From: Bacillota bacterium
Lineage (GTDB): Bacteria; Bacillota; Sulfobacillia; JAUYEG01
Direction: 5' to 3'
Length of the DNA: 64,000 bases
NCBI GenBank assembly: GCA_030691505.1
Contig: JAUYEG010000087.1
Location: forward strand, 2,476-66,475
The position numbers were made by a program, and so were the translations under genes. Below the pieces are notes generated by a model. It had not been told where the DNA came from. It worked only from the letters and a program-made list of their open reading frames with translations, and did no database searches. Position 1 is the stretch's first letter; every line of letters starts with the position of its first letter. Shown here in pieces: positions 7,892 to 24,134 of the stretch.

Positions 7892-9343
7892 TTGGCAGTT
7901 CGATTTGGCACGGATGGCTGGCGTGCCGTGATCGCCGATGAATTCACGATGAGCAACGTAGCCCTGGTCGCGGCGGCTGCGGCGGCACTGCTGCACGAGC
8001 GAGGGACCGCGGGAGAGGGCGTCGTGGTGGGACACGACCGGCGCTTCCTGTCCGACGCGTTCGCGCGCAGGTGCGCCCACGTCCTGGCGTCGTCCGGGGT
8101 ACGCGTGCTGCTGTGCGGCTATCCATGTCCGACACCTGCGGTGGGCCTCGCCGTCCGTTCCACGTCCAGCGCCCTCGGCATCATCGTCACCGCCAGCCAC
8201 AACCCCTACCAGTACAACGGCATCAAGCTCCGCGCGGCCACGGGTGCGCCGCTGGGCCCGGAGGACCGGCGCTGGATTGAGGAATGGATCGCCTCCGCAC
8301 GTGACGGAATCATGAGCCGCCTGGCCCGTCCGGGCGGCGAGGGACGCATACGGGCGCACGACCCCTGGCCGGAGTACCGGAACCACGTTGCCGCCCGCGT
8401 CGACCTTGAGGCGATCGGGGCCGCCGGCCGTACCGTGATCCATGACGCGATGCACGGGGCCGCCGCGGGATGGCTAGAGCGACTGGTTCCTCAGGTCCGC
8501 ACTGTCCGCAGGTCCCGGGATCCGCTCTTCGGAGGAACGGTGCCCGAGCCGCTTGCCGAAAACCTGACATCCCTCAGCCGCCGTGTGCGACGGTCCGCAC
8601 GCCCGGCAATCGGCCTGGCAACCGACGGTGACGGCGACCGCCTTGCGGCCATCGCCGAGGACGGGACCTATGTGGACTCGCACCATCTGCTTGCGCTCCT
8701 CTACTCCCACCTGGTTGAGGTACGGGGACTGCGGGGGCGCGCCGTGCGCACCGTCACCACGTCCGCGCTGGTTGACCGGCTTGCAGAGAGCTACGGGCTG
8801 CCCGTTGACGTCACTCCCGTCGGCTTCTGGCACGTGGCGAGACGGTTTGCGGCGGCTGTCAGGCCTCCCGCGGTCATCGGCGGAGAGGAGAGCGGGGGGA
8901 TCGGTTTTCCGCTGCACCTTCCCGAGCGAGACGGCATCTTCGCGGGCCTCATGCTCCTCGAGCACCTGACGCGGCAAGGCGTCACCCTGCGGGAGGCGAT
9001 AGACCGTCTGGCGCAGCGCTGCGGCCGTACCTATATTGACAGGCGCGACGTCAGGCTGCCGGCCGGGGAGGCCGCCGCGGAGGAGGCCGAGCGGGCCTGC
9101 TTGCCCCCGCGGACCCTGCTTGGACGCCCTGTGTTGCGGTGGCAGCGGGTTGACGGGCTCTGCATCGAAGCCGCGGGGGCCTGCCGCCTCCACGTGCGCG
9201 CGAGCCACACTGAGCCCGTGCTGCGGCTTTACGCCGAGGCCGGCAGCCGCGAGGACGTCGCTGCCCTGCTTGAGGAAGGGATTGCCCTGGTCAGAGCAGG
9301 TGATCGAGGCCTGCGCGACGGAGTTCCTCCTGTAGCAGTTTGA
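7892..9343 (+). CDS. phosphomannomutase / phosphoglucomutase
   Basis: FGTDGWR N-terminal motif and TASHNP active-site serine loop. TTG start with RBS GGAGGGG. The track ORF start at 7559 is an extension. Confidence 0.8.
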   Translation: MAVRFGTDGWRAVIADEFTMSNVALVAAAAAALLHERGTAGEGVVVGHDRRFLSDAFARRCAHVLASSGVRVLLCGYPCPTPAVGLAVRSTSSALGIIVTASHNPYQYNGIKLRAATGAPLGPEDRRWIEEWIASARDGIMSRLARPGGEGRIRAHDPWPEYRNHVAARVDLEAIGAAGRTVIHDAMHGAAAGWLERLVPQVRTVRRSRDPLFGGTVPEPLAENLTSLSRRVRRSARPAIGLATDGDGDRLAAIAEDGTYVDSHHLLALLYSHLVEVRGLRGRAVRTVTTSALVDRLAESYGLPVDVTPVGFWHVARRFAAAVRPPAVIGGEESGGIGFPLHLPERDGIFAGLMLLEHLTRQGVTLREAIDRLAQRCGRTYIDRRDVRLPAGEAAAEEAERACLPPRTLLGRPVLRWQRVDGLCIEAAGACRLHVRASHTEPVLRLYAEAGSREDVAALLEEGIALVRAGDRGLRDGVPPVAV

Positions 9344-10403
9344 TGTCCTGATCCCGGCGGCGGTCGCACACCAGGAGCACGTCGCCGGTGTCGACGATGA
9401 TCAGGTCGCGCACGCCGAGGGTCGCCACGACCCTGCCGCCGGCGGCATCGATGATGCAGCCCCCGGTTTCAACCGTCACCGCCGGACCGAGGACCACATT
9501 GCCGTCTCCGTCGGCGACGTTTGTCCTGCGCAGCGAAGACCAGCTTCCGAGGTCATCCCACCCGAACGCGGCCGGTACTGTGACCACGCCGCGCTCACGC
9601 TCGAGGACCCAGCGGTCTACCGGCACGGCTGGGAGCTGCGCGTACAGTGCGGCCATGCGGTCGGGGGCCGCCGCCCGGCTCAGCTCAGCCAGCACCTGGC
9701 CTGCTCCGATGTCGTGCCTCCCCATGGCCTCGAGGATCGTGCCGGCCTGCCAGGCGAAAATGCCGGCGTTCCATAGGTAGCGGCCGTCACTCAGATAGCG
9801 GGCCGCCCGCCTCCGATCCGGCTTCTCCACGAAGCGACGCACGGCGAGGACGGTCCGGCCTGCGGCGCTGTACACGGCCTTCCCCGGCAGGATGTACCCG
9901 TAGCCGGTCTCGGGGCGGGTCGGGCGCACCCCGATGGTCACGATCGCGCCGCCCGCGGCCGCGCCGATTGCCGCCGCCACGGTTGCGCTGAATTCATCCG
10001 GGCCCTCGACCCGGTGGTCGCTCGGGGCCACCAGCATCACAGCGTCGGGCCGCCCGCAGCGTGTCACGATATGAAGGGCGGCCAGGGCCACGGCCGGACC
10101 TGTGTTGCGGGCCGCGGGCTCCACCAGGATCCCTTCAGCCCCGATGCCCGGAAGCTGCCGGGCGACCTCGATTTCATAGGGATGGTGCGTGACGACGATG
10201 GTGTTCGCCGGCGGCACCAGCCGCCCCAAACGCGAGGCCGTGGACTGCAGCAGCGACTCGTCTCCACCGGCGAAGGACATGAACTGCTTGGGCCGGTGGC
10301 GGCGGCTTCTCGGCCAGAACCGCGTGCCGAGGCCCCCCGCGAGGATGACCGCGAAGACCGGGACCCCCCCGGGCTCCATGCGCAGACCCCCGGTATCCGT
10401 CAT
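9291..10403 (-). CDS. manC: mannose-1-phosphate guanylyltransferase
   Basis: AVILAGGLGTRFWP nucleotidyltransferase motif and a left-handed beta-helix C-terminus. ATG overlaps the stop of the upstream ORF as ATGA. Confidence 0.8.
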   Translation of the reverse strand: MTDTGGLRMEPGGVPVFAVILAGGLGTRFWPRSRRHRPKQFMSFAGGDESLLQSTASRLGRLVPPANTIVVTHHPYEIEVARQLPGIGAEGILVEPAARNTGPAVALAALHIVTRCGRPDAVMLVAPSDHRVEGPDEFSATVAAAIGAAAGGAIVTIGVRPTRPETGYGYILPGKAVYSAAGRTVLAVRRFVEKPDRRRAARYLSDGRYLWNAGIFAWQAGTILEAMGRHDIGAGQVLAELSRAAAPDRMAALYAQLPAVPVDRWVLERERGVVTVPAAFGWDDLGSWSSLRRTNVADGDGNVVLGPAVTVETGGCIIDAAGGRVVATLGVRDLIIVDTGDVLLVCDRRRDQDIKLLQEELRRAGLDHLL

Positions 10404-12229
10404 GGCTGATCCGCTTCCTGACCGCTGCCTGCAAGAAACGAACCGGCCAGAGCAAAGCTGCCCGCCAGCAGGGCCCAATAGGCGGCGAGCATCGCCGGCG
10501 GCACCGGCCTGTCGCCGATGGTTTCGGCCGCCCTGCCCAGCGCGGCGAGCGCGTCCCGCCGGGCCGCGTGTACCTGCAGCACCTGCTCCGCCGGTCCGAA
10601 CAGTTCCGGGGGAGCGGCACGGAGGGTGGCGGCGCCGGGCCGGCCGCCCCGCCGGACGGGCAGCGCCAGGACTGTGTTTTGCGGTTCGAGCGCCCGCCAG
10701 ATCCCGGCCGCGGCCGCATCCGCGGCGGTGGCCGGGGCAGCAGCACGTGGCGCGGCAAGGACATACAGGTACGGGGCGGCGGCAAGGACGTCGCCCCACG
10801 AACTGAATTGGGCTTGGGCATCTACCACCGGAACCAAGACGGAGCGGCCGCCGGTCCGGACGGTGTGCGCCAGACGGCGCAGCCCACCGTCGTCCTGGGG
10901 ACCGCGCCAGATGGCCAGGAGCAGATGGATATCCTCCATGGACTGTCCGGCGGCCACGCTCGCGCCCGGGGCCGCAAGGTCGGCGATGGCGGCGATGCGC
11001 GAGCCGGGGGACCACAGCTCCGGCCGCGCGACGCTGCCGCCGGGCCCGACCCGGAACCGGGCCGGGCGCCGGCGCGCCATTGGCCGGACAGAGAGATCAA
11101 CCGTGGGTGGAAAGGTCGAACCAGCCGCAGCGGGGACCAGCGGAGGTCCGGACGACGGGGGGGCGGCATCCAGGCGCAAGCACAGCACCGCCTGTCTGGC
11201 CCGTCTGAGGGCGTCCGGCCAGGCAGCCCCCCGGGCAATCTCGGCACCCGAAGGCAGCCAGCAGGCCTCGACCGCGATCCACGCCGGGCCCTGATGGATC
11301 TGCCGCGCCGGCGGGGCCGCCGGCATGCGACCAGCCAGAGGGATGGCAAGCGGCATCCCCAAGCCTGGCGCCTGCCCGCCGGGCTTCGCCAGCCGCTGCG
11401 GAAACGGCGGTAAGGCGTCGCCGGTGGGGGCCCCGGCCGCGCCGGTTCCGGTGGGCGGCAGCCTGACATCTACTGCCGCACGGTCCGCTATCTCATCACG
11501 GTAAGCACAGGCGTACACCACCGCGGTTGACAGGTCATCCCCTATGGCCGCGATGGCCCCGGCTAGATCCCGGCGGGCTTCCGGCGCCAATGCGCCATAC
11601 GGGTCGTCCAGCAACAACAGCTCCGGGTACGCGGCGAGCTCGCGGGCCAGGACCAGGCGTTCGCGGTCGACCGGAGAGAGCGAGGCGGCCTGGGCCTGCG
11701 CGACCTGGGCCAGCCCCGCCGCCGCCAGAGCCTCCCCGGTGCGGCGCTCCACCTGTGCCTCCGGCAGTCCCCCGAGCACCGGTGCGAGCGCTACGTTCTC
11801 GCGGACCGTGAAGTCGGGCCTCGGACGCAGCCCCGGGGTCACAACGCCGGGACGGGCCGCCGCGCGAGGCAGAGACCACGCCGGGTGGCCACCCAGATAC
11901 ACCTCGCCGCGCTCGGGCAGGTCGATGCCCGCGATCGTTCTCAGGAGGGCTGACTTACCCGCCCCGGGCGGGCCGGTGACTGCCACCAGCTGTCCCGGCC
12001 CGACAGAGAGGTCCAGGCCGGACCCTGCCGGCCAGTCCACTCCCGCGGGTCTGAGGCCCTGGCAGCGCAGCCATGGGCGGCTTTCTTGCGCGCTGCGCCG
12101 CGCGGTGTCCGTACGGGTGGGCGGCCGGGGCTCACGCGGAGAGGTGCCCACGCTGATCAACCGCCCATCGATAGACGAGCCATGTCTCCACTGCTGCGCG
12201 ACGCCAGCTGTAGCCGCGGACGCGGACAC
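10400..12229 (-). CDS. degenerate ABC-type nucleotide-binding domain fused to a ~380-aa Ala/Pro-rich domain of unknown function
   Basis: Walker A GPPGAGKS. Signature degenerate (LSPVDRERL). Walker B LLLLDDP (catalytic Glu replaced by Asp). No H-loop His. The C-terminal region has no recognisable motifs. The stop is translationally coupled to manC. Start uncertain; candidates are GTG 12229 and GTG 12151. Confidence 0.5.
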   Translation of the reverse strand: MSASAATAGVAQQWRHGSSIDGRLISVGTSPREPRPPTRTDTARRSAQESRPWLRCQGLRPAGVDWPAGSGLDLSVGPGQLVAVTGPPGAGKSALLRTIAGIDLPERGEVYLGGHPAWSLPRAAARPGVVTPGLRPRPDFTVRENVALAPVLGGLPEAQVERRTGEALAAAGLAQVAQAQAASLSPVDRERLVLARELAAYPELLLLDDPYGALAPEARRDLAGAIAAIGDDLSTAVVYACAYRDEIADRAAVDVRLPPTGTGAAGAPTGDALPPFPQRLAKPGGQAPGLGMPLAIPLAGRMPAAPPARQIHQGPAWIAVEACWLPSGAEIARGAAWPDALRRARQAVLCLRLDAAPPSSGPPLVPAAAGSTFPPTVDLSVRPMARRRPARFRVGPGGSVARPELWSPGSRIAAIADLAAPGASVAAGQSMEDIHLLLAIWRGPQDDGGLRRLAHTVRTGGRSVLVPVVDAQAQFSSWGDVLAAAPYLYVLAAPRAAAPATAADAAAAGIWRALEPQNTVLALPVRRGGRPGAATLRAAPPELFGPAEQVLQVHAARRDALAALGRAAETIGDRPVPPAMLAAYWALLAGSFALAGSFLAGSGQEADQP

Positions 12230-13310
12230 GTCCGCTTGCCGCGAGGGCTCTGCGCCGCTCCGGCTCGGAGAGCGCCAGGGCCAGCTTTGAGGCCATCATC
12301 GCCGGATCGCAGGGATCGAAGAACAGCGCCGCATCGCCCGCAACTTCGCGGTGGGCGGGGATGTCGGAAACGACCAGCGGCACGCCGCAGGCCATGGCCT
12401 CGACCAGCGGAAGGCTGAAACCCTCGCTCAGCGACGGGCAGCAGACCAGCCCTGCCGCTCCGTAAAGGCCCGGCATGTCCGATACGGGGACCAGGCCTGG
12501 CATCACGACCCGTCCCTGCAGCCGGCAGTCCGAGATCATCTGCGCAAGACGCGAGCTGTCACGGCCGGGTGCGCCTGAGAGAACGACCTGGGGCAGGGCC
12601 TGCGCCGCGCTCCGGTCCTGGAGGAGCCGGGCCGCCGCATCGAGCAGCAGGGCCAGATTCTTGCGTGGATTGAAGCCCCCGACGTGCAGGATGTACCCCG
12701 GGGTCAGGCCGTATTTCGACGTCACCTTTCGGACGCCGTCCTCGCTGATCTCAGCAAGGTACTGCTCTTCGGGCGCCTCGTGAACAACCGCGATCTTTTC
12801 GGCGGCAATCCCGAGCACCTCACGCAGGTCCACCGCAGTCGAGCGGGACACGGCGATGATCCGGTCGGACCGGTGCATCGCCCATGGCATGTCTCGGATG
12901 CTGTCGCGCAGGTAGCTGGCACTGCAAGTCTGGGGCAGGGTGAAGGGAATCAGGTCATGAACCGTCGTTACCACGGCGCAGGGCACATCGGGCAGTCCCC
13001 GCCCGTTCTGCGGCAGGTGCAGGATGTCGGCTCGCTCGCGGACGCAGAGGTCGGCCAACTCCGCGGTTTCCGCCGCGCGCTCCGTCGCCGAAAGGCGCAC
13101 GCACCGAACCCGGGCCCGGGGTTCCACGGCTGAGCCGGTCGCAAGGCTCTCCTCGAGCGGGAGCGGCGGTGCCCCCTGGGGCAGGCAGATCACCACGGTG
13201 TCACAGGCACTGGCCGTTAGGGCCACGTTCTCGGCCAGTTGGTGCGTATAGGTGCCGATGCCCGTGCCGCGGTAGCGGATTGCGCCCCGGCCGTCGATAA
13301 CGATCCGCAA
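12132..13310 (-). CDS. GT4-family glycosyltransferase
   Basis: GT-B fold C-terminal region with an EGFSLPLVEAMACG motif. N-terminal RGTGIGTYT motif shared with two paralogs in this window. Confidence 0.85.
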   Translation of the reverse strand: MRIVIDGRGAIRYRGTGIGTYTHQLAENVALTASACDTVVICLPQGAPPLPLEESLATGSAVEPRARVRCVRLSATERAAETAELADLCVRERADILHLPQNGRGLPDVPCAVVTTVHDLIPFTLPQTCSASYLRDSIRDMPWAMHRSDRIIAVSRSTAVDLREVLGIAAEKIAVVHEAPEEQYLAEISEDGVRKVTSKYGLTPGYILHVGGFNPRKNLALLLDAAARLLQDRSAAQALPQVVLSGAPGRDSSRLAQMISDCRLQGRVVMPGLVPVSDMPGLYGAAGLVCCPSLSEGFSLPLVEAMACGVPLVVSDIPAHREVAGDAALFFDPCDPAMMASKLALALSEPERRRALAASGRVRVRGYSWRRAAVETWLVYRWAVDQRGHLSA

Positions 13311-13313
13311 CGC

Positions 13314-14330
13314 CTAACCCCCCCGGCTGGCCTCAGTGTGTTCTTGAATACAGGCCATCTGGGTTTGGTACTCCTGCATGGCCCGCTTGAGGTGCCTCAC
13401 GAAGGTGTTCTCCGGCCAGTCGCGCTTATGCTCGTAGTAGCGCTGCGCCAACTGGTACAAGCGGTCCGGGAACTCCAGCACCAGCATGAGGATCGACTTC
13501 TCCCCGGCTGACATCGGGCGCTCCCGGTCATAGGCCGCGATGACCCGGCCAAGCAGCGCGCTGTCGCCGCCTGTGCCCTTGATGACGCGTAACGCCAGAC
13601 GTGCCACATCGGTGACATGGCATTCGCGCCGGCACCCACCCCAGTCCACAAATACCGCACGGGGCTGCGGCTCGTTGGTCAGGACGACACCGTTCCGGCC
13701 CACGCGGCGATACACAAACAGCCCCTGTTTCCTGGACTGCTCCGCCAACTCCGCCCACTGCGAGGACTCAAGCCGCTCCAGCGTGGCCTCCGCCTGCGGC
13801 AGCACGGTCTCGACCGCCGCCAGAAACCCGCGGTCCATGGCCGTCCGGCGCAGCTTGTTGTGCGCCATCAAGACATACGTGCGCAACGACCTTATGCGGT
13901 CGCGGCAGCGCGAGAGGTAGCGGTGGTACATGTCGAGCGGTTCGGGCATCTCGTCGCCGTTCAGTTCCGCGGAGGCCCGGTGCAGCGAACCCAGAGCGGC
14001 GGCCGTGGCCAGCGCATCGCTTTCCAGTCCCAAAAGGGCCCCGTGCCCGTCTACCAATTCGCTCAACAGCCAGGTAGAGTGGCCTGCGCGGACCCCAAGC
14101 TGCCCGGCCGCGTCGCGGCGCCAGGCGGGGAGCCCCGCAAACCCCTGGGCGAGCAAGTGCTCGATGGCCCGCAAGGACAGGTCCGCCTTGGCGCTCCGCC
14201 GCTTTATCTCCCGCAGCACCAGCATGTCGTCACCGGCCAGCACGAGCCACGCGGCATGCCCGCAGGGCTCGATCCTGGCCGGCTGCACGATGCCGTACCC
14301 GGCCAGGATCTCCGCAAAGGCCGTTTCCAT
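13314..14330 (-). CDS. CotS-family spore coat protein (protein-kinase-like fold)
   Basis: Aminoglycoside-phosphotransferase/CotS-like catalytic region (VFVDWGG, CHVTD). Start likely at METAFAEIL, immediately after the upstream stop. Confidence 0.65.
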   Translation of the reverse strand: METAFAEILAGYGIVQPARIEPCGHAAWLVLAGDDMLVLREIKRRSAKADLSLRAIEHLLAQGFAGLPAWRRDAAGQLGVRAGHSTWLLSELVDGHGALLGLESDALATAAALGSLHRASAELNGDEMPEPLDMYHRYLSRCRDRIRSLRTYVLMAHNKLRRTAMDRGFLAAVETVLPQAEATLERLESSQWAELAEQSRKQGLFVYRRVGRNGVVLTNEPQPRAVFVDWGGCRRECHVTDVARLALRVIKGTGGDSALLGRVIAAYDRERPMSAGEKSILMLVLEFPDRLYQLAQRYYEHKRDWPENTFVRHLKRAMQEYQTQMACIQEHTEASRGG

Positions 14331-14331
14331 G

Positions 14332-16296
14332 TCAGCTCTCTTGCCGGGGGTGCACCGGCGACGGCCATTTGCTCCAGACGATCGTGCGGGGACCAGGAGG
14401 GGCGGCAGCCACCTGCACGGCCTGGTCCTCTGCCGGCGCCGCATCGTGTGGCTCGAGGTCATCCGGCGCGGGGGCTTCGGCCTGCGGCGGCGTGCCGGCC
14501 GCCTCTTCCAGGTCTGCTGCCCGGGCTGGCTTCACGTCGAGGGCCGGGGGCCACTCGTCCGGAATATCTCCTGCCTCGTCGCCGGTTGGACTTTCCGGAG
14601 GGGTTTCCTTGTCCCCCGCAGGCTCCGTGATCTCACCGGTTACGGTCACGGCCTTCTGCTCCCCGGGCGGGCGGACCGGGTGAGGCAGCGGCCCCCACAC
14701 GAGGCGGCGTGCCGGCGCCGAGGCTCGCGCGGAGGCCGGCACGGCAGCCTGCTTGGGAGCTGACACTGTCTCCGGCACGGTCACAGCCACTGGCTCCGGC
14801 TCGGGCTTATGCTCGGCCCCAAGCCCTGGCTCCGGCTCGGCCTGCTGCACGGGCCCGGCCATGGTCTCGGGTTCAGCGGACAGGGGGATCACCAGCTGCA
14901 AACCGGGCTCCAATGCGGTCTCTTTTGCCTCGGCCGCGGGGGCTTCGCTCTCAGGGGCAACCGGGGTCTCCTCCGGCGCCGGCTGCGCGAACACGAGCAC
15001 GTCTTCCTCCTCGGGCTCAGGTTCTGTCCAGGCCTGGTAAATAGGGGTTTCTTCCAACATGGGGGCCGCCTCCTCCTCAAAACTTCCGGCCGGCAGGTCG
15101 ATGGCATCCATCCGCAGCAAGTCCAGAGGGATTGCTTCCAGCTGGTCCGGCTCGACCGGCGTGGCCGGCAGATGCGGTCCGTCAGGCACGTCCGGCGTGT
15201 CTACGGGCTCGGGCCCGGACACGGCGCCCGGGCCGGGCAGGGTCACAAGGATCGGCTCGGCCGGCAGGTCCAGGCCGCCGACTATCTTGGCGAACCTGGC
15301 CCTCTGCTCGGCGCTTTCCAGCAACCTGCGCAGAGTGCGGTTGCGGCGGTGGTCTTTTTGATAGCGGGACTTGCCGACGGCCCAGAACTCCATCGGGAAT
15401 AGCAGGTAGGTTCCGATCAACTCCGTCTCCTCGCGGCTCAGGGGTCTGCCGCGGGCCTGCCCGTAGCTCTGCAAGATAAAGGCCGCGCGTTCAAGGTCCA
15501 GCCCCGCCGCGCGGCGCACGAATTTGGCCAGGTCCTCCAGCCGGATTTCGAGACCCGAGCTGTCAAAATCCAGCAGGCGCAGCCGCATCCGTGAATCCAT
15601 GGCCAGGTTTCGCGGGGTGAAATTGCGGTGGCATACCGCACCCGCTTCCCGCTCTGTCTGCGCCAGATCGCCCAGCGTGGAATCGGCGAGACGGCGAACC
15701 GCCGCCTCGGCCTGACGGCAGAAAGCCGGAGCGGCCTTGGCGTAACGGCTATCGAATCTCGAATCGCGCCGTCCTTCGTCGGCCAGCTCTGCAAAGCCGT
15801 ACAGGTCCCGCAGGCGCTCGACGGACTTATCGAGCCAGCTTCCATAGTCGTCGCGCAACCCGCCGAGACCCGGCCGGGGCCGGAATCGTTCCCCCGCCTG
15901 GTGCATCCTCGCCATTATCTCCACTGCCGTCCGCAGGGTGCCGGGTTCACCGATGTCCGGCCGGCTCAGGTCGTACCAGTCCTGAAGGTAGAGGATTTCG
16001 CCGTCAAGGTGCACGTACGGTTCGCCGCTGCGGGTGAGGTAGATTCGGGGCGCGTCGTCGAAGCCCCGGGAGCGCAGGTGCTCAAGCATGTCATGGACGA
16101 GGCAGATCTCCTGCGGCCCGAACCGGAAGCGTTTCAGGAACCTCGGCCCGCGCGGGCTCTCCACCTTGAAGCCCGATCCCACCGGGATCAGGTTCATGGG
16201 GGTCCAGCCGTAGGCGCCCAGCGCGTCCATCGTCTGCAGATAGCGGTCCCGCTGTTTCGCGAATTCCCGACCATTTGTTTCATCCTGCGAGGTCAT
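14332..16296 (-). CDS. CotS-family kinase-like protein with a ~320-aa acidic Pro/Glu/Ala-rich low-complexity C-terminal tail
   Basis: N-terminal ~330 aa carry CotS/APH-like motifs (CHRNFTPRNLAMD, LLDFD). The C-terminal tail is PEPE-rich. Confidence 0.7.
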   Translation of the reverse strand: MTSQDETNGREFAKQRDRYLQTMDALGAYGWTPMNLIPVGSGFKVESPRGPRFLKRFRFGPQEICLVHDMLEHLRSRGFDDAPRIYLTRSGEPYVHLDGEILYLQDWYDLSRPDIGEPGTLRTAVEIMARMHQAGERFRPRPGLGGLRDDYGSWLDKSVERLRDLYGFAELADEGRRDSRFDSRYAKAAPAFCRQAEAAVRRLADSTLGDLAQTEREAGAVCHRNFTPRNLAMDSRMRLRLLDFDSSGLEIRLEDLAKFVRRAAGLDLERAAFILQSYGQARGRPLSREETELIGTYLLFPMEFWAVGKSRYQKDHRRNRTLRRLLESAEQRARFAKIVGGLDLPAEPILVTLPGPGAVSGPEPVDTPDVPDGPHLPATPVEPDQLEAIPLDLLRMDAIDLPAGSFEEEAAPMLEETPIYQAWTEPEPEEEDVLVFAQPAPEETPVAPESEAPAAEAKETALEPGLQLVIPLSAEPETMAGPVQQAEPEPGLGAEHKPEPEPVAVTVPETVSAPKQAAVPASARASAPARRLVWGPLPHPVRPPGEQKAVTVTGEITEPAGDKETPPESPTGDEAGDIPDEWPPALDVKPARAADLEEAAGTPPQAEAPAPDDLEPHDAAPAEDQAVQVAAAPPGPRTIVWSKWPSPVHPRQES

Positions 16297-16298
16297 AC

Positions 16299-17474: not shown

Positions 17475-17665
17475 CGCCAGCGCGTCACCCGCGGTGAGGC
17501 CAGGACGAACACCGCCAATCCCACGGCGGCCAGGGTGAGTAAGCTTGGCCAAAGCACCAGAGCAGCCGTCCCGAGCAGGATACCCGCCAGGACACGGAGT
17601 TTCCTCGCAGCCGCCCGGAGGCCCCGCGCAATCCTGCGCACGCCGGATGGAGCGCTCGCCGCCAC
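17471..17665 (-). CDS. small (64 aa) predicted membrane protein, translationally coupled to the GT4 gene
   Basis: GTG start. One strongly hydrophobic span (LAGILLGTAALVLWPSLLTLAAVGLAVFVLA). TGA overlaps the downstream ATG. Confidence 0.3.
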   Translation of the reverse strand: MAASAPSGVRRIARGLRAAARKLRVLAGILLGTAALVLWPSLLTLAAVGLAVFVLASPRVTRWR

Positions 17666-17830
17666 CGCCTCACCCCCTCACCCGTCCCTTCATTGTATGA
17701 GCGAGGCGCTGAGCGGTGAGGAGCGGGCGCCCGAACGCATCAGCCTGCCCGGCACTATAATGGACCACCGATTTGAATGTGGGTTTGCCTGGTGTTTTCT
17801 ACCGGGCGCCCGCGCTGAGGGAGGGTCCCG

Positions 17831-18853
17831 GTGGAGACGCAAGCCCTGCTCGCCCACTGGAACCTGACGGTCAAGTCCGCGGAGCCGGTCTCCGGTTCGC
17901 CCCGCGTTCATCGCGTCGAAACCGCGGCCGGCCCGAAGGTGCTGAAGAGGTCCAGGATCAGGGAGGACGAGGTGCTGTTTGTCCACGCGGCCCAGGAGCA
18001 TCTCGCCGCGTCGGGTTTCCATGAGGCTCCGCGCTTTCAGCTTGCCCGTGACGGAAGGCCTTTCGTCCGTCAAGGCTCCGAGCTGTGGACCCTGACGGAT
18101 TGGGTCGATGCGGAGCGCTCCACGCTCCGTCGAAAGAACCAGCTCGATCTGGCGGTGGGCAAAGTTGCGGAATTGCATGAGAGGAGCGCCGGGTTCCCCG
18201 CGCCCGCTCAGCCTGCCGACCGCACTCGGTGGGGGGCCTGGCCGGAGATCTTCCGGGCACGCCTTGACCAGCTTGGCGTATTCCGCCGCCTTGCGCGTGA
18301 GGCCAGGACGCGCACCGCATTTGACCGGCTTTATATGGGGCTGCTTGACTACCACTGGGAACAGGCCGCGACGGCCATTACGCTGCTGCTCCGCACACGC
18401 TACCGCCGGCTGATGGACCTTGAGTGCAGGCGGGCCTCGATCTGCCACCATGACCTGACCCACAACAACATCATGTTCCGACCGGACGGGAGCGTTCACC
18501 TGCTCGACCTGGACTACTGCCTCGCGGACAGCCGGTTGCACGACGTCGGCAGCATGATTCTCCGCCACTGCAAGCGTTTCGGGTGGGATCTGGCGGCGGC
18601 GGAGCTATACATCAAGCTGTACAGCCGTAATAGCCGCGATCCGCTTAGCTCCGACGAGCTTGCCGTTCTCGCGGCCTTCCTGTACTGGCCTCAGGATTTC
18701 TGGCAAGTCGGCCTGCAGTACTACGTTGAAAAACAGCCCTGGCCGCTCAGCAGGTTTCTTTCTTCACTTGAGCGCAAAACGGCCAACCGGCGCGAGCACG
18801 AGGCGTTTCTCGCCGGCTTTCGCCGGCGTTTCTCGCCGGACCTGACGGTGTGA
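17831..18853 (+). CDS. CotS-family spore coat protein
   Basis: ICHHDLTHNNIMF and LLDLDY catalytic-loop motifs. GTG start with RBS GGAGGG. Confidence 0.8.
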   Translation: METQALLAHWNLTVKSAEPVSGSPRVHRVETAAGPKVLKRSRIREDEVLFVHAAQEHLAASGFHEAPRFQLARDGRPFVRQGSELWTLTDWVDAERSTLRRKNQLDLAVGKVAELHERSAGFPAPAQPADRTRWGAWPEIFRARLDQLGVFRRLAREARTRTAFDRLYMGLLDYHWEQAATAITLLLRTRYRRLMDLECRRASICHHDLTHNNIMFRPDGSVHLLDLDYCLADSRLHDVGSMILRHCKRFGWDLAAAELYIKLYSRNSRDPLSSDELAVLAAFLYWPQDFWQVGLQYYVEKQPWPLSRFLSSLERKTANRREHEAFLAGFRRRFSPDLTV

Positions 18854-18860
18854 GGAGACA

Positions 18861-19925
18861 TTGACTTTGGAGCAACCCGGGTTCACACCAAGCTCGCTGC
18901 TTGTCCAATGGCCGGTTGACGTCACAGACGTCAAGGCCGTCGGCGACGTGTACAGCGTCGCCGGTGTGGGGCGGCGCTACGTGCTCAAGCCGATCAACAA
19001 GGGCATGCGCCGCGCCCGCTTTATATGTTCGCTGACCGAATACCTCGGCCGCGGGGCTGATCCCCTGACGCCTGGCTTGATCCGCACCCGGGTCGGGAAA
19101 CTGCTGACCACGGAGTCGAGGCGCCGCCACTGGATCCTGTGCGAGTGGATTCCGGGCCGGACGTGCGACTGGGCGGACCTTGGCGACGCCGCGCGCTGCG
19201 CGGCGGCTCTGGCCAGATTCCACACCCAGGCCCGGGACTACTGCCATCTACCCCACGAGCGACCGCAGGCATACTGGGACCGCTGGCCCACACGACTGCT
19301 GCGGCGCTACGAGGCCTTACGGGGCTTCTGCGCGGCTGCCGAGCGCGCGGTCCAGGCCGGCGGGGCCCCGTACTTCGACCGCATGGTCGCGGCCCAATCT
19401 GCCCGTCAGCTTGCCCGGGCCCAAGATGCGATGCGCGTTCTGGCCGCCTCGCCCTACCGGTCGCTCTGCGCCGAGTACCGCCGGCGGGGTCAGGTCATCC
19501 ACGGCGATCCGGCGGGCCGCAACTTCGTTGCGACCGAGAACGGAATGGTGCGTATCATCGACCTCGAGTCGATAAGACAGGACCTGCCGGCCCTGGACAT
19601 CGCCAAGCTCCTGCGGCGCGTACTCAAAAGCCATGGCTGGCGCACCGACGTGGCCATGGCCGTCCTGTCGGCATACGCGGACGCCGGCGGGCTGGACCCG
19701 TCGATGCTGCCCGTGGTATACGCGTTCATCGCCTACCCGATGAAATTTAGCTACGACGTCAGGCGCTACTACACGTGCGCGGAGGGCTGGGCCTACCGCC
19801 GCCACCTTCGGAAGCTGATCAAGCACCTATGGGGAGAAAAAGGCAAACAGCGTTTCCTCGATTGGTTCGGCCGTGATTTCGCCCGGGCGCCCTATGCGGA
19901 GGCCGATCATGCCGGCGGCTGTTGA
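18861..19925 (+). CDS. CotS-family spore coat protein
   Basis: VIHGDPAGRNFV and IIDLES motifs. Confidence 0.8.
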   Translation: MTLEQPGFTPSSLLVQWPVDVTDVKAVGDVYSVAGVGRRYVLKPINKGMRRARFICSLTEYLGRGADPLTPGLIRTRVGKLLTTESRRRHWILCEWIPGRTCDWADLGDAARCAAALARFHTQARDYCHLPHERPQAYWDRWPTRLLRRYEALRGFCAAAERAVQAGGAPYFDRMVAAQSARQLARAQDAMRVLAASPYRSLCAEYRRRGQVIHGDPAGRNFVATENGMVRIIDLESIRQDLPALDIAKLLRRVLKSHGWRTDVAMAVLSAYADAGGLDPSMLPVVYAFIAYPMKFSYDVRRYYTCAEGWAYRRHLRKLIKHLWGEKGKQRFLDWFGRDFARAPYAEADHAGGC

Positions 19926-20691
19926 GGATTTGCAGGCGGTGGTTCTCGCCGGAGGGTTAGGTCTTCGGCTGCGGCCTGCCGTGGCCGACCTGCCCAAGGT
20001 CATGGCGCCGGTCGCGGGGCAGCCCTTCCTGGCCCACCTGCTGGGTCGTCTGCAGAGGCAGGGCGTGCGCCGGGTCGTGCTTTGCGTCGGGCACAAGGCT
20101 GAAGATATCGCCGGGCACTTCGGCGACGGCCGGCGGCACGGCCTTCAGATCACCTACTCCGTCGAGGACACGCCGGCGGGGACGGGTGGGGCGCTCCGGC
20201 TGGCATGCCGGCTGCTGGATCCGGCATTTCTGCTGCTCAACGGGGATACCGCCATCGATCTTGACCTCTGTGAGCTTCGGGACTACCACCGGGCGCGAGG
20301 CGGGTTGGTTACAGTTGTCGGGCGCCGCTGGCGCGGGAGGCCGCGCCAGGACGCCGGTTACGTTCTGGCTGCCCGGGGTGGGCGGGCCCTGGCTTTCACC
20401 CGTGGTCCCGTTGCCGGCCGCGTGTTTCCGGAGGGTGAGCTGTGGGTCAACTGCGGCTGGTTTATGTGCGAACGCCGGGCTGCGGAGATGATCCGGCGAC
20501 CGCCAGGGGCGATGTCCAGCCAGGACGCCCTATCGCTTGAAAGCGGGCTATTCGCGTCCGTGCTTGGCGCCATCTTCGTGTTTCCGACTACGCAGCCGTT
20601 CGTGGATATCGGGACCCCCGAGCGATACCGGCGGCTCAAGCGGGAGTGGGAGGACAATGCAGTACCTGAGCCGGGCCCCCCTGCGGGTTAG
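19909..20691 (+). CDS. hddC: sugar-1-phosphate nucleotidyltransferase (D-glycero-alpha-D-manno-heptose-1-phosphate guanylyltransferase-like)
   Basis: AVVLAGGLGLRLRP ... DLPKVMAPV ... GTGGAL NTP-transferase motifs. Start uncertain (19873-19909). Confidence 0.7.
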   Translation: MPAAVEDLQAVVLAGGLGLRLRPAVADLPKVMAPVAGQPFLAHLLGRLQRQGVRRVVLCVGHKAEDIAGHFGDGRRHGLQITYSVEDTPAGTGGALRLACRLLDPAFLLLNGDTAIDLDLCELRDYHRARGGLVTVVGRRWRGRPRQDAGYVLAARGGRALAFTRGPVAGRVFPEGELWVNCGWFMCERRAAEMIRRPPGAMSSQDALSLESGLFASVLGAIFVFPTTQPFVDIGTPERYRRLKREWEDNAVPEPGPPAG

Positions 20692-21685
20692 CTTCGCGGG
20701 GGGCGGCACCGATGTCTCCCCGTATCCGGAGACGGCCGGCGGGGCGGTGCTCTCCGTTGCCATCAACCGTTTCTGCCGCGCCGTGCTGGCGCCGCGCAGG
20801 GACGGATTGGTGTTCGTGCGCTCGCTCGACTACGGGGTCAGTCACGTATTCCCGATTGACCGGGTGCCGGACTTGACCGGGCCGCTGGCTCTCACCGGAG
20901 CCGTCCTGCGGGCCGCGGGGGATCTTGGTTCAGGCCTTGACCTTGTGTCCGCAAGCGAGGCGGCTCCCGGGTCGGGCCTTGGGGCAAGCAGCGCCCTGGT
21001 TGTCGCCATTCTTGGGGCTGTCCGCGCCTGGCAGGGCCGGCCGTGGACAAACGCTCAGCTTGCCGAACTGGCCTATCGGGTCGAACGGATCGACCTCGGG
21101 CTCAGCGGCGGCCGCCAGGACCAGTACGCGGCCGTCTTCGGAGGCCTCAACTTCCTGGAGTTTCTTCCCGGGCGGACCATCGTCAACCGCCTGCAGCTGC
21201 CTCGAGGCGTCGACGATGGACTCAAAGCGAGCCTCCTTCTCTGTTACACGGGAAAGGGGCATCCCAACGAAGACCTTATCGGCCAGCAGGTCGCCTCCTT
21301 CCGGGCCGGCGAGCGCAAGGTGGTCGCCGCATTGGAACACCTCAAGGAACTCGCTGTGGTCATGAAGCAGGCCCTCGAACGCGGCGACCTCGAGTCTTTT
21401 GCCGGTCTGTTGGCTCAGGGGTGGGAGCACAAGAAGGCCCTTGCCGACGGGATCAGCGACCCGGCCATCGACCGGATGTACCAGGCCGCCCTGGATGCTG
21501 GGGCGCTCGGCGGCAAGTTGTTGGGATCCGGGGGCGGCGGGCATTTGCTGCTCTTTTGCCCGCCATCGAGCCGGGCCCGTGTGGTGGGGGCCGTGCAGGG
21601 CCACGGCTGCCGCGAGGTGCCGTTTGACTTCAGTCCCGGCGGCGTGGAAGCCACGATTTCCGGAGGTGATCCCGTTGCCAGCTGA
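20657..21685 (+). CDS. hddA: GHMP-family sugar kinase (D-glycero-alpha-D-manno-heptose-7-phosphate kinase-like)
   Basis: PLRVSFAGGGTD N-terminus and GHMP ATP motif PGSGLGASSA. RBS GGGAGGA lies upstream of ATG 20657. Confidence 0.75.
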   Translation: MQYLSRAPLRVSFAGGGTDVSPYPETAGGAVLSVAINRFCRAVLAPRRDGLVFVRSLDYGVSHVFPIDRVPDLTGPLALTGAVLRAAGDLGSGLDLVSASEAAPGSGLGASSALVVAILGAVRAWQGRPWTNAQLAELAYRVERIDLGLSGGRQDQYAAVFGGLNFLEFLPGRTIVNRLQLPRGVDDGLKASLLLCYTGKGHPNEDLIGQQVASFRAGERKVVAALEHLKELAVVMKQALERGDLESFAGLLAQGWEHKKALADGISDPAIDRMYQAALDAGALGGKLLGSGGGGHLLLFCPPSSRARVVGAVQGHGCREVPFDFSPGGVEATISGGDPVAS

Positions 21686-22976
21686 GGACCGGCGGGGTTA
21701 CCTTGACGATTGGTTGGCCTGGACTCAGTCCGCGGTGCGGAGTCTGGAGCCTGCCGCACGCTGTCTGGCTGATCTGGTATCCCTGGTGCTTGCGGCGGGC
21801 GGGTCACTGTACGTCTGCGGCAACGGCGGAAGCGCCGCCGATGCCCAGCACTTCGCGGCCGAGCTGGTCGGACGGTTTCTGCGGGAACGTGCGGCGCTGC
21901 CGGTCGTGGCGCTGACGGCGAACACATCGGTACTCACGGCCCTGGGCAATGACTACGGCTTTGACGCCGTCTTTGGCCGGCAGGTCGAGGCCATGGCCCG
22001 CCCCGGCGACTGCCTGATGGTAATCTCCACCAGCGGGCGGTCGCCTAACGTCCTTGCCGCCCTGCGGGCCGGGCGCCGGCAGGGTGTCCTCACCATAGCC
22101 CTGGTCGGGCCGGAAGGGCTTGACCCCTCTGTCGTATCCTGCTGCGATTTCTGCCTGGCCGTGTCGGGCCCGGACGGCGGCACCGCGGAGACCTGGTCGG
22201 GCATGGCCACGCCGCACGTGCAGGAAGTGCATCTGGCCCTGCTGCACTACGTTGCCCACCTCGTGGAACGCGGCGTTGAGTCGCGCAGGGGCCGCCCGCG
22301 GCGATGCGCCCTGCGGCCGGCGGTGTTCCTGGACCGCGACGGCACTGTCGTCCAAGAACGGGGGCACATCACCGATGAGCGCGACCTCGCGGTGTTGCCG
22401 GGCGCTGCGGACGCGGTCAGGCGGCTGAAAGGGGCCGGGTTTGTCGTTGTCCTGACGACCAATCAATCGGTGGTCGCCCGCCGTCTGGTTGACGGGCCGG
22501 GTCTCGAGCGGCTGCACGGCCGCCTGCGGGCGCTTGCCGGCGAGCGCGGAGCTGTCCTCGACGCCATCTACCATTGCCCGCATCACCCCGAGCATGGCCT
22601 GCCGGGTGGGCCGTGCGCCTGCCGAAAGCCGATGCCCGGGATGATGCTCCGCGCCGCGGACGAGATGTCGCTTGACCTGGGAGCCTCATTCGTGATCGGA
22701 GACAACTGGACCGACGTGCAGGCCGCCGCCGCGTGCGGTGCACATGGCGTGCTGGTCCTCACCGGCTCAGGGGCCGGCGCGCTGGCGGCCGGGAGTCCGC
22801 TGGCGGCCGAGAGCGCCGGGCGATGGTCCGTTGCCACCGACCTCGCCGCTGCCGCGGACGACGTGATCGCCCGCCACCGGGCAAACGAGTCGTGGCCGGC
22901 CCCGGGCGGCCGGGCGGGCACCCCGGGACCGGCAGAGGCGGGCAGGGGTCCGGGCGATGATTCGCATCGGCATTGA
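21675..22976 (+). CDS. gmhAB: bifunctional fusion: SIS-domain phosphoheptose isomerase (GmhA) + HAD-type D,D-heptose-1,7-bisphosphate phosphatase (GmhB)
   Basis: SIS motifs (YVCGNGGSAADAQHFAAEL, ISTSGRS) followed by the HAD motif FLDRDGT and a Cys-rich CPHHPEHGLPGGPCACRKP zinc loop typical of GmhB. TTG start with RBS GGAGGTG. Confidence 0.75.
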   Translation: MPAEDRRGYLDDWLAWTQSAVRSLEPAARCLADLVSLVLAAGGSLYVCGNGGSAADAQHFAAELVGRFLRERAALPVVALTANTSVLTALGNDYGFDAVFGRQVEAMARPGDCLMVISTSGRSPNVLAALRAGRRQGVLTIALVGPEGLDPSVVSCCDFCLAVSGPDGGTAETWSGMATPHVQEVHLALLHYVAHLVERGVESRRGRPRRCALRPAVFLDRDGTVVQERGHITDERDLAVLPGAADAVRRLKGAGFVVVLTTNQSVVARRLVDGPGLERLHGRLRALAGERGAVLDAIYHCPHHPEHGLPGGPCACRKPMPGMMLRAADEMSLDLGASFVIGDNWTDVQAAAACGAHGVLVLTGSGAGALAAGSPLAAESAGRWSVATDLAAAADDVIARHRANESWPAPGGRAGTPGPAEAGRGPGDDSHRH

Positions 22977-24102
22977 CGCCCGGCCCTCCGTCTGGTACCG
23001 CGGCACCGGTATCGGCAACTACACGTACCAGCTGGTGCAGCACCTGCAGAGGATGGACCGGGTCAACATGTACTCCATCCTGTGGCCCGACGATTGCCCG
23101 CTTCCCAATCTTCCGCCGCGCTGGCGCGCGACTGCGATGCCGAAAAAGCGCAGTGACGAGCGGCAACTGATCGGCCCGTGGCTGCGGGAACAGGATCTGG
23201 ACGTGTATCACCTGCCGCAAAACGGGCTGCGCGCCCCCGCCGATCTCGGCCGCACCCGGCTGGTGGTGACGATCCATGACCTGATCCCGTTCCTGCTCCC
23301 CGAATACGTGCGCCATTCGTTCGCCAGGCGGTTTCTGCGCGAGGTGCCGGCAGCCGCCAAGCGAGCCGCCCGGGTGGTCACGGTCTCGCGGCGCTCCGCG
23401 TGCGACCTGACCCGCATCCTCGGAGTGGACGAGGGCAAGATCAGGGTTGTCTATCCGGCGCCTGAGGAGGTGTTCCGCCCGGTGCCCGCGGCGGCCAGGC
23501 GGCGGGTCGCGGCCGAGCTGGCGGTCCGGTACGGCGTACATGAGCCGTACGCGCTTTACGTGGGTGGAATCACCCCGCGCAAGAACCTGTTTGATCTGGT
23601 CTATGCGTTTGGCAAGATCTGCCGTCAGCTTGTTCCGCAGATGACCCTGGTCATCTCCGGGCTGCTCGGGCAGCACGGGAGTCAGGTGGCAGAGCTCTCC
23701 GAGCTTCTGGGGCTCAAATCCTACGTGCGCCTGCCGGGCGAGGTGCCCCTGTCCGACCTTCCCGCCCTATACAGCCTGGCCACCTTCGCCGTCTACCCCT
23801 CGATGTATGAGGGATTCGGCCTGCCGCCGCTCGAGGCCATGGCCTGCGGGACGCCGGTGCTGTGCTCCGACGCCGGCTCGCTGCCCGAGGTGGTGGGCAG
23901 GGCCGGGCTGATCGTAAGGTCAGGCGACGTGACCGCGCTGAGCGAGGGCATGCTTCGCCTGGCCGGGGACCCCTGGCTGCGCGACCGCCTGGTGACACGC
24001 GGGGAACGGCATGTCGCCCGTTTCTCGTGGGCGGCCACGGCCGCCGGCATCCTCGACGCATACCGCGAGGCCGCCGCGCAGGAGGAAACCGGTGGCGGAT
24101 AG
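22957..24102 (+). CDS. GT4-family glycosyltransferase
   Basis: [14 protein letters not shown] motif. N-terminal RGTGIGNYT motif. Confidence 0.85.
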   Translation: MIRIGIDARPSVWYRGTGIGNYTYQLVQHLQRMDRVNMYSILWPDDCPLPNLPPRWRATAMPKKRSDERQLIGPWLREQDLDVYHLPQNGLRAPADLGRTRLVVTIHDLIPFLLPEYVRHSFARRFLREVPAAAKRAARVVTVSRRSACDLTRILGVDEGKIRVVYPAPEEVFRPVPAAARRRVAAELAVRYGVHEPYALYVGGITPRKNLFDLVYAFGKICRQLVPQMTLVISGLLGQHGSQVAELSELLGLKSYVRLPGEVPLSDLPALYSLATFAVYPSMYEGFGLPPLEAMACGTPVLCSDAGSLPEVVGRAGLIVRSGDVTALSEGMLRLAGDPWLRDRLVTRGERHVARFSWAATAAGILDAYREAAAQEETGGG

Positions 24103-24134
24103 AACTCCCCCTATGCACCGCACATCTTGCCATA

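Follow-up and report, generated by a model that had tools for sequence, protein, structure and literature searches.

A candidate spore-surface glycosylation locus with GDP-mannose and GDP-heptose supply in uncultured Bacillota

What does a bacterium build when spore kinases of the CotS type are encoded side by side with glycosyltransferases and with enzymes that supply two GDP-activated sugars? The question is raised by positions 7892 to 24102 of a 64,000-nucleotide stretch of contig JAUYEG010000087.1 (the whole stretch is hereafter the window), which comes from a member of the Bacillota. Here two divergent operons encode four CotS proteins of the BSK family of spore kinases, three GT4-family glycosyltransferases, ManC, a predicted route to GDP-heptose and an unusual ABC-like fusion, and the gene for ManB lies at one end. 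The sugars on a spore's surface determine how hydrophobic and adhesive it is, how it disperses and how hosts or phages recognize it, and those known from spores include rhamnose derivatives, quinovose, legionaminic acid, anthrose and N-acetylglucosamine (GlcNAc). We propose, giving it a somewhat better than even chance, that the locus is a late-sporulation, mother-cell unit that builds a mannose/heptose glycan on the spore surface, whether on the outer coat, the crust or the exosporium. An initial annotation, made from the sequence alone, had described a spore-surface glycosylation locus with GDP-mannose and GDP-heptose supply, a description that is supported by the BSK identity of the CotS proteins, the sigmaK-type motifs of both operons and the cytoplasmic character of the machinery.

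Gene identities in the cluster were computed by Pfam, NCBIfam and PDB sequence searches of the window's open reading frames (ORFs). Together with an independent gene call on the identical public contig, which reproduced the outer ends at 7892 and 24102, these searches confirmed the gene list of the initial annotation gene for gene. The two operons are separated by a 165-bp control region, and a conserved Nudix gene stretches the unit to 24632. Read 5' to 3', the minus operon consists of a 64-residue ORF, GT4b, CotS_c, CotS_d, GT4a, ABCx and ManC, and the plus operon of CotS_a, CotS_b, HddC, HddA, a GmhA-GmhB fusion, GT4c and the Nudix hydrolase; ManB converges on ManC, the 3' ends of the two genes sharing 53 nt. 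Within the operons most genes overlap or lie a few bases apart, which indicates co-translation. The features are as follows.

7892-9343, plus strand: ManB-like phosphohexomutase of the phosphoglucomutase/phosphomannomutase (PGM/PMM) type, 483 residues, with all four PGM_PMM domains
9291-10403, minus strand: ManC, mannose-1-phosphate guanylyltransferase with the GMP domain only; last gene of the minus operon
10400-12151, minus strand: ABCx, degenerate ABC-ATPase-like fusion (ABC_tran, 68.6 bits)
12132-13310, minus strand: GT4a, retaining GT-B glycosyltransferase (Glycos_transf_1 and Glyco_transf_4 domains)
13314-14330, minus strand: CotS_d, predicted BSK-family pseudokinase (TIGR02906, 139.9 bits)
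14332-16296, minus strand: CotS_c, 654 residues, BSK domain with a tail (TIGR02906, 164.2 bits)
16299-17474, minus strand: GT4b, CotSA-like partner of CotS_a (GT4 domains)
17471-17665, minus strand: uncalled hydrophobic ORF of 64 residues (from ORF and membrane-segment analysis)
17692-17717, minus strand: sigmaK-type promoter motif of the minus operon, AC-N16-CATACAAT
17735-17769, plus strand: sigmaK-type promoter motif of the plus operon, AC-N17-ACTATAAT
17831-18853, plus strand: CotS_a, motif-intact BSK (TIGR02906, 260.7 bits)
18867-19925, plus strand: CotS_b, motif-intact BSK (TIGR02906, 163.4 bits)
19909-20691, plus strand: HddC-like sugar-1-phosphate nucleotidyltransferase, predicted heptose-1-phosphate guanylyltransferase (NF049965, 110.6 bits)
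20657-21685, plus strand: HddA, GHMP-type kinase (NF049969, 196 bits)
21675-22976, plus strand: fusion of GmhA (sedoheptulose-7-phosphate isomerase) and GmhB (heptose-1,7-bisphosphate phosphatase), SIS_2 and HAD-IIIA domains
22957-24102, plus strand: GT4c, retaining GT-B glycosyltransferase (GT4 domains)
24162-24632, plus strand: Nudix hydrolase (NUDIX, 26 bits)

Conservation of the locus and its spore kinases

Five other uncultured Bacillota genomes share the cluster and its housekeeping neighbours in synteny, with protein identities of 39-80%: L002/L008 (GCA_040766985.1), L004 (a Logan assembly), L088 (GCA_020052495.1), L089 and L010. Thirteen genes stand in identical order in L002/L008, L004 and L088; in L002 and L004 they correspond 1:1 to those of the window at 39-61% protein identity (for ABCx over the N-terminal domain only), and CotS_a is 75% identical to the window's copy in L088 and 80% in L089. 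The L089 contig ends inside GT4b and carries the plus operon without CotS_b, and L010 has a compact form in which a GT4 gene stands on one side and CotS_a-HddC-HddA-GmhA-GT4c-ManB on the other. Synteny extends to pyrF on one flank and, on the other, to genes for an M42 peptidase, a histidine phosphatase and a PdaB-like LysM deacetylase. Since the same genes recur in the same order in relatives, their grouping is not due to chance, and the cluster is real, old within the clade and vertically inherited. The word "island" in the initial annotation is therefore wrong in the sense of horizontal transfer: the G+C content of the region (65-74%) matches that of the rest of the window (63-69%; about 68% throughout the window), and this composition, with the synteny of the flanks, rules out a horizontally acquired island. 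The host's FabF is 69-86% identical to proteins of a handful of assemblies and then at most 60% identical to those of all named Bacillota, a drop that points to a deep, uncultured lineage. An origin in Symbiobacterium, guessed from G+C content, is not supported, no Symbiobacterium protein being found among the 120 best FabF relatives. In L002, a metagenome-assembled genome (AnMBR.bin301), ManB and the M42 peptidase (609-2047 and 16895-17955) are each split into two ORFs; these splits may reflect frameshifts or faulty assembly, and ManB is possibly a pseudogene in that genome.

The Nudix gene and the 64-residue ORF probably belong to the unit. The position of the former is kept in L004 (64% identity), L088 and L089; no specific NCBIfam model matches the Nudix protein, which might, speculatively, control the GDP-sugar pool. 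The 64-residue ORF has a hydrophobic stretch sufficient for two membrane helices, and its stop codon overlaps the ATG of GT4b (ATGA). A homologue in L088, where the public gene call placed a 64-residue ORF on the opposite strand, has the same C-terminal VFVLASP motif, and the ORF is absent from L002, L004 and L089.

By their sequence relationships, all four CotS proteins belong to the BSKs rather than to the generic aminoglycoside or choline kinases. CotS_a is the sole paralogue over the TIGR02906 cutoff of 172.7 bits; CotS_b, CotS_c and CotS_d have no better family, and their strong NCBIfam matches are to BSK models only (CotS, CotI, YsxE and YutH). In PDB searches YtaA/CotI (2Q83) and 4PDY were the top solved relatives of CotS_a, CotS_b and CotS_d, YtaA matching CotS_a at E=1e-25 and CotS_b at E=3e-12 from single sequences. 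Pfam labels CotS_a "APH", and the initial annotation had allowed that such proteins could turn out by phylogeny to be generic aminoglycoside or choline kinases. A profile of the CotS_a family speaks against that possibility: it finds YtaA at 1.9e-52, while the best kinase outside the BSKs reaches only 2.8e-6 and HSK2, APH and choline kinases, at 1e-6 or worse, trail by many orders of magnitude. Beyond a weak match over the catalytic loop, which in CotS_a is to a Kdo kinase, the PDB searches gave no homology of the BSKs to WbdD, WaaP or KdkA.

The four proteins differ in their catalytic states, which we read from an alignment of the catalytic region using YtaA D239, N244 and D257 as reference residues (PMC2860764). 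CotS_a, the most conserved member, has intact HHD...N and DLD motifs, its H206, H207, D208, N213, D226 and D228 being invariant in 34 homologues, and CotS_b has intact HGD...N and DLE motifs; by these motifs both are probably active small-molecule or sugar kinases. CotS_c has Asn at the position of the catalytic Asp in the window and L004 (HRN), whereas L002 retains Asp (HRD). CotS_d lacks the HxD loop and has Arg in place of the ATP-site Lys in all three orthologues. We therefore regard CotS_d as a predicted pseudokinase and CotS_c as ambiguous, and the latter may be non-catalytic in this genome. Thus, of the four CotS-like kinases originally claimed, all stand as BSKs, but only CotS_a and CotS_b are motif-intact. 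Identity among the CotS paralogues is 21-30%, whereas each is 42-57% identical to its own orthologues in L002 and L004, indicating that they are long separated and not redundant. CotS_b is missing in L089 and L010, where CotS_a directly precedes HddC, suggesting that CotS_b is dispensable or a later insertion. Assignment of CotS_b, CotS_c and CotS_d to Clostridium BSK classes by BLAST was abandoned, since CotS_a scores best against nearly every clostridial BSK and no 1:1 mapping is possible.

CotS_c is further set apart by its build, in which the BSK domain (residues 1-340) is followed by an acidic tail of 314 residues, of which 19% are Pro, 16% Ala and 13% Glu. Conservation of this tail is low outside two motifs, GPHLP[AS][TV]P and a C-terminal [IL]VWxxWPxP, both common to three orthologues; the tail has no Pfam match at E<=1, and its motifs fit no known motif family. 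We suggest that it serves as a disordered spacer bearing short docking motifs, and that it could plausibly be an anchor or accept the glycan. In the window the tail (14332-15310, minus strand) contains an additional internal LVWGPLPHP repeat.

The linkage of BSKs to glycosyltransferases extends far beyond this clade. Scheeff et al. described in 2010 BSK paralogues, frequent pseudokinases among them and a strict co-occurrence with glycosyltransferases of the CotSA/YtcC class, together with links to nucleotide-sugar enzymes (PMC2860764). We scanned a profile of CotS_a homologues over one genome per species, which gave at least 545 stretches, and analysed the best 80 with 10-kb flanks. Several CotS paralogues were found in 75 of these 80 loci, a GT4 in 55 and ManC in 17. 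In the Clostridium loci inspected, a GT4 gene diverges from a CotS gene, further CotS genes follow, a GT4 gene points back towards them beside another CotS gene, and ManC lies a few kb away; the divergent GT4/CotS pair recurs in the three of them, L026, L031 and L059, and also in L025. The core of BSK and GT4 genes, with or without ManC, is therefore widespread in Clostridia and already described (2010), and the likeness to cotSA-cotS that the initial annotation had drawn is supported by the same linkage. New here are the GDP-heptose module, along with the orphan ABC-like protein and the BSK with its tail: HddA and GmhA occur together in only two of the 80 CotS loci, L008 and L010, both of this high-GC group. 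In a distant relative of 52% G+C (L006, 4740-9812, and L009), the small regulator gene gerE lies directly beside GT4-ManC-PHP and faces two CotS genes, a compact module that has its likely regulator next to it.

The divergent control region

Promoters were compared in five genomes of the clade (window, L002, L004, L088 and L089). In the 165-bp alignment of the window, L002 and L004, the sole invariant stretch is an 18-mer, GCACTATAATGGACCACC, at 17752-17769. It is unique in the window and identical in L088 too, and in these four genomes the flanking proteins are only 57-75% identical; in L089 it is changed at one position. On the plus strand, AC-N17-ACTATAAT lies upstream of CotS_a in four of the five genomes, the fifth having N18. 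On the minus strand, CATAnnAT is found upstream of GT4b in all five, with AC 16-17 nt upstream of it in four, and in four of the five the combined AC-N16/17-CATAnnAT precedes the first start codon of the minus operon by 19-30 nt. According to Saujet et al., sigmaE and sigmaK promoters are alike at -10 and differ at -35, where sigmaE promoters have ATA and sigmaK promoters AC; the sigmaK promoter cited there, a consensus for C. difficile and B. subtilis, has CATATAAT at -10 and AC at -35 (PMC3789822). Both operons thus carry sigmaK-type promoter motifs, as far as sequence patterns define them.

In support of this, the two sites are two of only three matches to the combined pattern in the window, for which about 2.5 matches would be expected across 128 kb (both strands) and about 0.006 in the control region. 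The canonical sigmaK form, AC-N16/17-CATAnnnT, is present in 30 of 70 orthologous CotS loci, nearly always as CATATAAT or CATATACT, compared with 3.9% of control windows from the same loci, which are mostly coding DNA and so underestimate the background in AT-rich intergenic DNA; the 70 loci are those with enough upstream sequence, searched from -200 to +60 of the CotS start. By itself CATACANT occurs once in the window, where 1.4 matches would be expected, and so shows no enrichment; it is meaningful only through its position, the AC at -35 and its conservation.

Several other readings of the control region found no support. A sigma-70 and terminator consensus scan of 7000-25000 gave nothing above shuffle expectation, and an Rfam scan of the control region gave a chance-level match only, so that the 18-mer is not a known RNA element. 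It is also not the start of a coding sequence, as annotated in L002, its ATG being out of frame with CotS_a in the window and its conservation at the nucleotide level only. Judged by eye, sigmaF, sigmaG and GerE-box readings of the 18-mer did not fit in spacing and core. The eight bases that follow TATAAT (GGACCACC) are as conserved as the -10 element, which a promoter reading alone is insufficient to explain; they might be a regulator site or an element of the initial transcript.

Predicted sugar supply and assembly machinery

As judged from family matches and context, all steps of a GDP-heptose route are encoded, and the route belongs to the GHMP/HddA (GDP) type. The full set of HddC, HddA, GmhA and GmhB that the initial annotation had claimed is indeed encoded in one operon, though at scores below the NCBIfam cutoffs (see below). 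HddA has the GHMP_kinases_N and GHMP_kinases_C domains, with NF049969 as its best model, and matches 3K85, 4USK and 4N3O in the PDB at E values of 1e-51 to 1e-63; 3K85 and 4N3O carry the label of heptose phosphate kinases, 4USK only that of a "sugar kinase". Its homologues number in the thousands at about 47-52% identity, many of them named HddA by JGI. It is a GHMP-type kinase, as in the alpha-anomer route, and not of the ribokinase type of HldE/HldA, as in the ADP-beta route. The best PDB matches of HddC are Y. pseudotuberculosis HddC (5XHW and 6JQ8), over an alignment limited to residues 10-120, and the two halves of the fusion match phosphoheptose isomerases and D,D-heptose-1,7-bisphosphate phosphatases; for GmhB the beta-type NCBIfam model outscores the alpha-type model. 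The nucleotide and anomer specificity of these enzymes is a prediction, which sequence does not reveal. No heptose-modifying enzyme was identified among the cluster products, and the transferred sugar would therefore be plain D,D-heptose.

The mannose branch of the supply is confirmed in its ManC part: the protein has the domains PF00483 and PF22640 (NTP_transferase and ManC_GMP_beta-helix), lacks the cupin domain of phosphomannose isomerase (PMI), and matches TIGR01479 with 273 bits over model positions 2-347 of 467. The ManB part of the claim holds at the level of the PGM/PMM superfamily, its best model being GlmM. Context favours a phosphomannomutase role: ManB is syntenic in L002 and L004 and lies within the heptose operon in L010.

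In PDB searches the three GT4 proteins are generic retaining GT-B enzymes, with MshA, PimA and similar enzymes as the relatives of GT4a. From operon position, GT4c is the best candidate heptosyltransferase, since it accompanies the heptose genes in L010 also, and GT4a is a candidate mannosyltransferase by its adjacency to ABCx and ManC. GT4b, which diverges from CotS_a, is the ancient CotSA-like partner of that protein.

The "odd ABC-like fusion" of the initial annotation is present, but it is degenerate, has no permease and carries an orphan C-terminal domain. An ABC-like domain of about 180 residues (about 55-235) is followed by a Pro/Ala-rich linker and a C-terminal domain (about 290-583). 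In the window's copy Walker A alone is retained, with LLLDDP at Walker B and LSPVD at the signature and with neither the Q-loop Gln nor the H-loop His; the L004 copy lacks Walker A too. The C-terminal 343 residues have no Pfam match at E<=1, and an exhaustive HMMER search found six relatives of the C-terminal domain among 1.84 billion representative proteins. An AlphaFold2 (AF2) model built from a five-sequence alignment (pLDDT 55, too poor for a fold search) suggests, with low confidence, an alpha/beta domain followed by helices. A role as transporter ATPase was ruled out by the degenerate motifs and by the lack of a cognate permease or of a Wzt_C match, no permease gene being found near ABCx. 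We take ABCx to be a clade-specific accessory protein, perhaps one that binds nucleotides.

None of the 14 cluster proteins has a membrane segment, the sole membrane ORF in the cluster being that of 64 residues, and among those ORFs of the cluster and its surroundings that were annotated there is no priming transferase, no flippase, polymerase or permease (Wzx, Wzy or Wzm) and no ligase. Soluble machinery without export genes suits glycosylation inside the producing cell, that is, on a developing spore, and not the making of an envelope polymer.

Explanations for the locus, related systems and neighbouring genes

From these data we infer timing, location, donor and acceptor specificities and kinase substrate as follows. 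SigmaK RNA polymerase would transcribe both operons in the mother cell late in sporulation. The heptose donor would be made locally, by the GmhA isomerase, the HddA 1-kinase, the GmhB 7-phosphatase and the HddC guanylyltransferase in turn, to give GDP-heptose, while ManB and ManC would make GDP-mannose. The three soluble GT4s would then build an alpha-linked mannose/heptose glycan directly on proteins of the outer coat or exosporium; assembly in the mother-cell cytoplasm would need no lipid carrier, flippase or exporter. The BSKs would be coat-associated partners that keep the transferases in place at the coat; CotS_d, and perhaps also CotS_c, would serve as a scaffold, while CotS_a and CotS_b would phosphorylate a small-molecule or sugar substrate. 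The flanks of the cluster agree with such a late-sporulation reading, as judged by the sporulation-type genes found there: a SafA/ExsA-like protein with three LysM domains, above the SafA-domain cutoff (5125-6240, minus strand), and a PdaB-like polysaccharide deacetylase with a C-terminal LysM domain (27184-28209, minus strand), the latter syntenic in relatives. The same holds for the gerE gene found beside GT4-ManC and two CotS genes in the distant relative. The concept is that of crust and exosporium glycosylation in Bacillus, where the sps, cge and BclA systems glycosylate the outermost spore layer in the mother-cell cytoplasm during the sigmaK period by means of soluble glycosyltransferases; the sugars predicted here are mannose and heptose. 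The initial annotation's likeness to the sps genes was not found, and the annotated cluster products gave no match to rhamnose, legionaminic-acid, Cge or collagen-like families.

A number of points weigh against this reading. Three of the BSKs score under the TIGR02906 cutoff (CotS_c 164.2, CotS_b 163.4 and CotS_d 139.9 bits). All of the heptose enzymes score under theirs (HddA 196 of 600, HddC 110.6 of 300, GmhA 149.5 of 209 and GmhB 149.9 of 178 bits), so that they are divergent members whose function is deduced from best matches and context. The best NCBIfam model of ManB is the archaeal-type GlmM, at 277 bits and below the cutoff of 439, and ManB could be a GlmM-type mutase. The donor specificity of the three GT4s is not readable from sequence. 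The plus-strand -10 element departs from CATATAAT at its first two positions and is a perfect TATAAT, which is also the -10 of housekeeping sigmaA, and to this the underestimated background of the promoter comparison must be added. The host lineage is known from metagenome assemblies only, its nearest named relatives being at most 60% identical in FabF. Finally, GDP-D,D-heptose of Gram-positive bacteria is otherwise known from a vegetative S-layer glycan, that of Aneurinibacillus thermoaerophilus (PMC5387315).

This last precedent suggests an alternative, namely that the locus makes a vegetative envelope glycan (an S-layer glycan, secondary cell-wall polymer or capsule) containing D,D-heptose and mannose, beside which the CotS-like proteins are incidental. 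The perfect TATAAT and the presence of an ABC-type ATPase domain would suit it. We nonetheless consider it quite improbable, given that no initiating phosphoglycosyltransferase, permease, flippase, polymerase or oligosaccharyltransferase was found in the cluster or in the annotated parts of the window, that membrane segments are lacking and the ABC motifs degenerate, that the heptose genes are translationally packed between CotS_b and GT4c into a CotS_a-headed operon, as holds for every member of the clade, and that the promoters of both operons are sigmaK-like. A soluble small molecule, for instance a glycoside that contains heptose or mannose, an aminoglycoside-like natural product or a compatible solute, for which the APH-fold proteins would serve as tailoring or self-resistance kinases, is more improbable still. 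APH-fold kinases, NDP-heptose genes and glycosyltransferases do co-occur in clusters for heptose-containing antibiotics, and the Pfam label of CotS_a points the same way. However, neither an aminocyclitol or scaffold synthase nor an aminotransferase, exporter or regulator is encoded in the cluster, YtaA is far ahead of the APHs as a relative, and a pseudokinase (CotS_d) and an ambiguous CotS_c with a 314-residue disordered tail are unlike tailoring enzymes; moreover, the core is common to Clostridium species behind sigmaK-type promoters.

A further possibility refines the late-sporulation reading and is compatible with it. Here CotS_a and CotS_b would be glycan kinases that phosphorylate heptose or mannose residues, for example as a chain cap, and ABCx a Wzt-derived glycan binder without transport. 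WaaP and WaaY act in this manner on the heptose of lipopolysaccharide (LPS). The gene set parallels that of the E. coli O9a system, in which WbdD, an enzyme of protein-kinase fold, phosphorylates the terminal mannose of a polymannan (PMC3482155). The BSK structure paper also argues, from the linkage to glycosyltransferases and from the APH-like pocket, that BSK substrates are small molecules and possibly sugars (PMC2860764), and CotS_a and CotS_b retain all catalytic residues, with a weak Kdo kinase match in CotS_a. On the other hand, similarity to WbdD, WaaP or Wzt_C was not detected, the low-confidence model of the ABCx C-terminal region is alpha/beta, CotS_b is dispensable in two lineages, and no BSK had been assayed for catalysis when the structure paper was written (2009; PMC2860764), nor did we find a later activity assay or a reported BSK substrate in the literature. 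Glycan-kinase activity is thus a tentative proposal that we think unlikely, though it is the most interesting of the alternatives, and doubt of at least that degree attaches to the combined claim of a heptose-containing, possibly phosphorylated spore glycan made in the mother-cell cytoplasm with the BSKs as its glycan kinases and scaffolds.

Comparison with known systems shows which features are shared. Like B. subtilis cotSA-cotS and ytcC-cotI (ytaA) with ytdA-ytcABC, the locus sets BSK paralogues, some of them pseudokinases, beside GT4s and nucleotide-sugar enzymes, and like the Clostridium BSKC2-6-1(+4) operon flanked by two glycosyltransferases (PMC2860764) it has a divergent GT4/CotS pair and sigmaK-type motifs. 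Unlike the Bacillus and Clostridium BSK loci, it distributes four BSKs and three GT4s over two divergent operons and has a supply of GDP-mannose with a complete GDP-heptose route in place of UDP-glucose-derived sugars, an acidic-tailed BSK, an orphan pseudo-ABC protein and an uncultured host of 68% G+C. With known GDP-heptose routes it shares the four predicted enzyme activities and a GHMP-type HddA, but here GmhA and GmhB are fused, the operon is headed by spore-kinase genes, and there is neither export or lipid-carrier machinery nor a heptose-modifying enzyme. With O9a (PMC3482155) it shares the GDP-mannose supply, GT4s, a kinase-fold enzyme and an ABC nucleotide-binding domain with an added C-terminal domain. 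In contrast to O9a, it has no Wzm permease, methyltransferase or undecaprenyl-linked initiation and its ATPase motifs are degenerate; homology was detected neither between the BSKs and WbdD nor between ABCx and Wzt_C, so that the parallel is one of analogy only.

The initial annotation had called a heptose-containing spore glycan unusual, and in a full-text literature search we found no report of heptose on a spore, heptose and spores or exosporia occurring together only as incidental co-mention. Such a glycan would be new without being shocking to a specialist. More broadly, the pairing of spore kinase and glycosyltransferase appears as a modular platform that takes different nucleotide-sugar routes. 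The substrate of the BSKs was an open question when the family was defined in 2010, and we found nothing in the literature that settles it; with two intact BSKs and a simple supply of GDP-mannose and GDP-heptose only, this locus is among the cleanest contexts in which to ask it. Were the combined claim of a heptose-containing spore glycan with BSKs as its glycan kinases to hold, BSKs would gain their first biochemical function, and a heptose glycan would be known from a spore for the first time. Practical use is limited, the organisms being uncultured.

Outside the unit, the window holds some further genes of note. The genes at 28294-32503 encode a LarA-like nickel-pincer isomerase (group 22; its 461 bits exceed the cutoff) and, next to it, a Ddl-like ATP-grasp ligase and a protein of 592 residues with a B12-binding domain and no other family match; together they may form a small pathway that makes or modifies an unusual D-amino or hydroxy acid. 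An AAA ATPase is encoded at 45010-45945 (plus strand), its best match being the MadB family at 281 bits, below the cutoff of 475. At 34693-38838 (plus strand) lies the gene for a multidomain signalling protein of 1381 residues with a C-terminal GGDEF diguanylate cyclase domain, whose residues 812-1005 match a model of NosR-family response-regulator cyclic di-GMP phosphodiesterases and which has weak NifA-like matches before the GGDEF domain.

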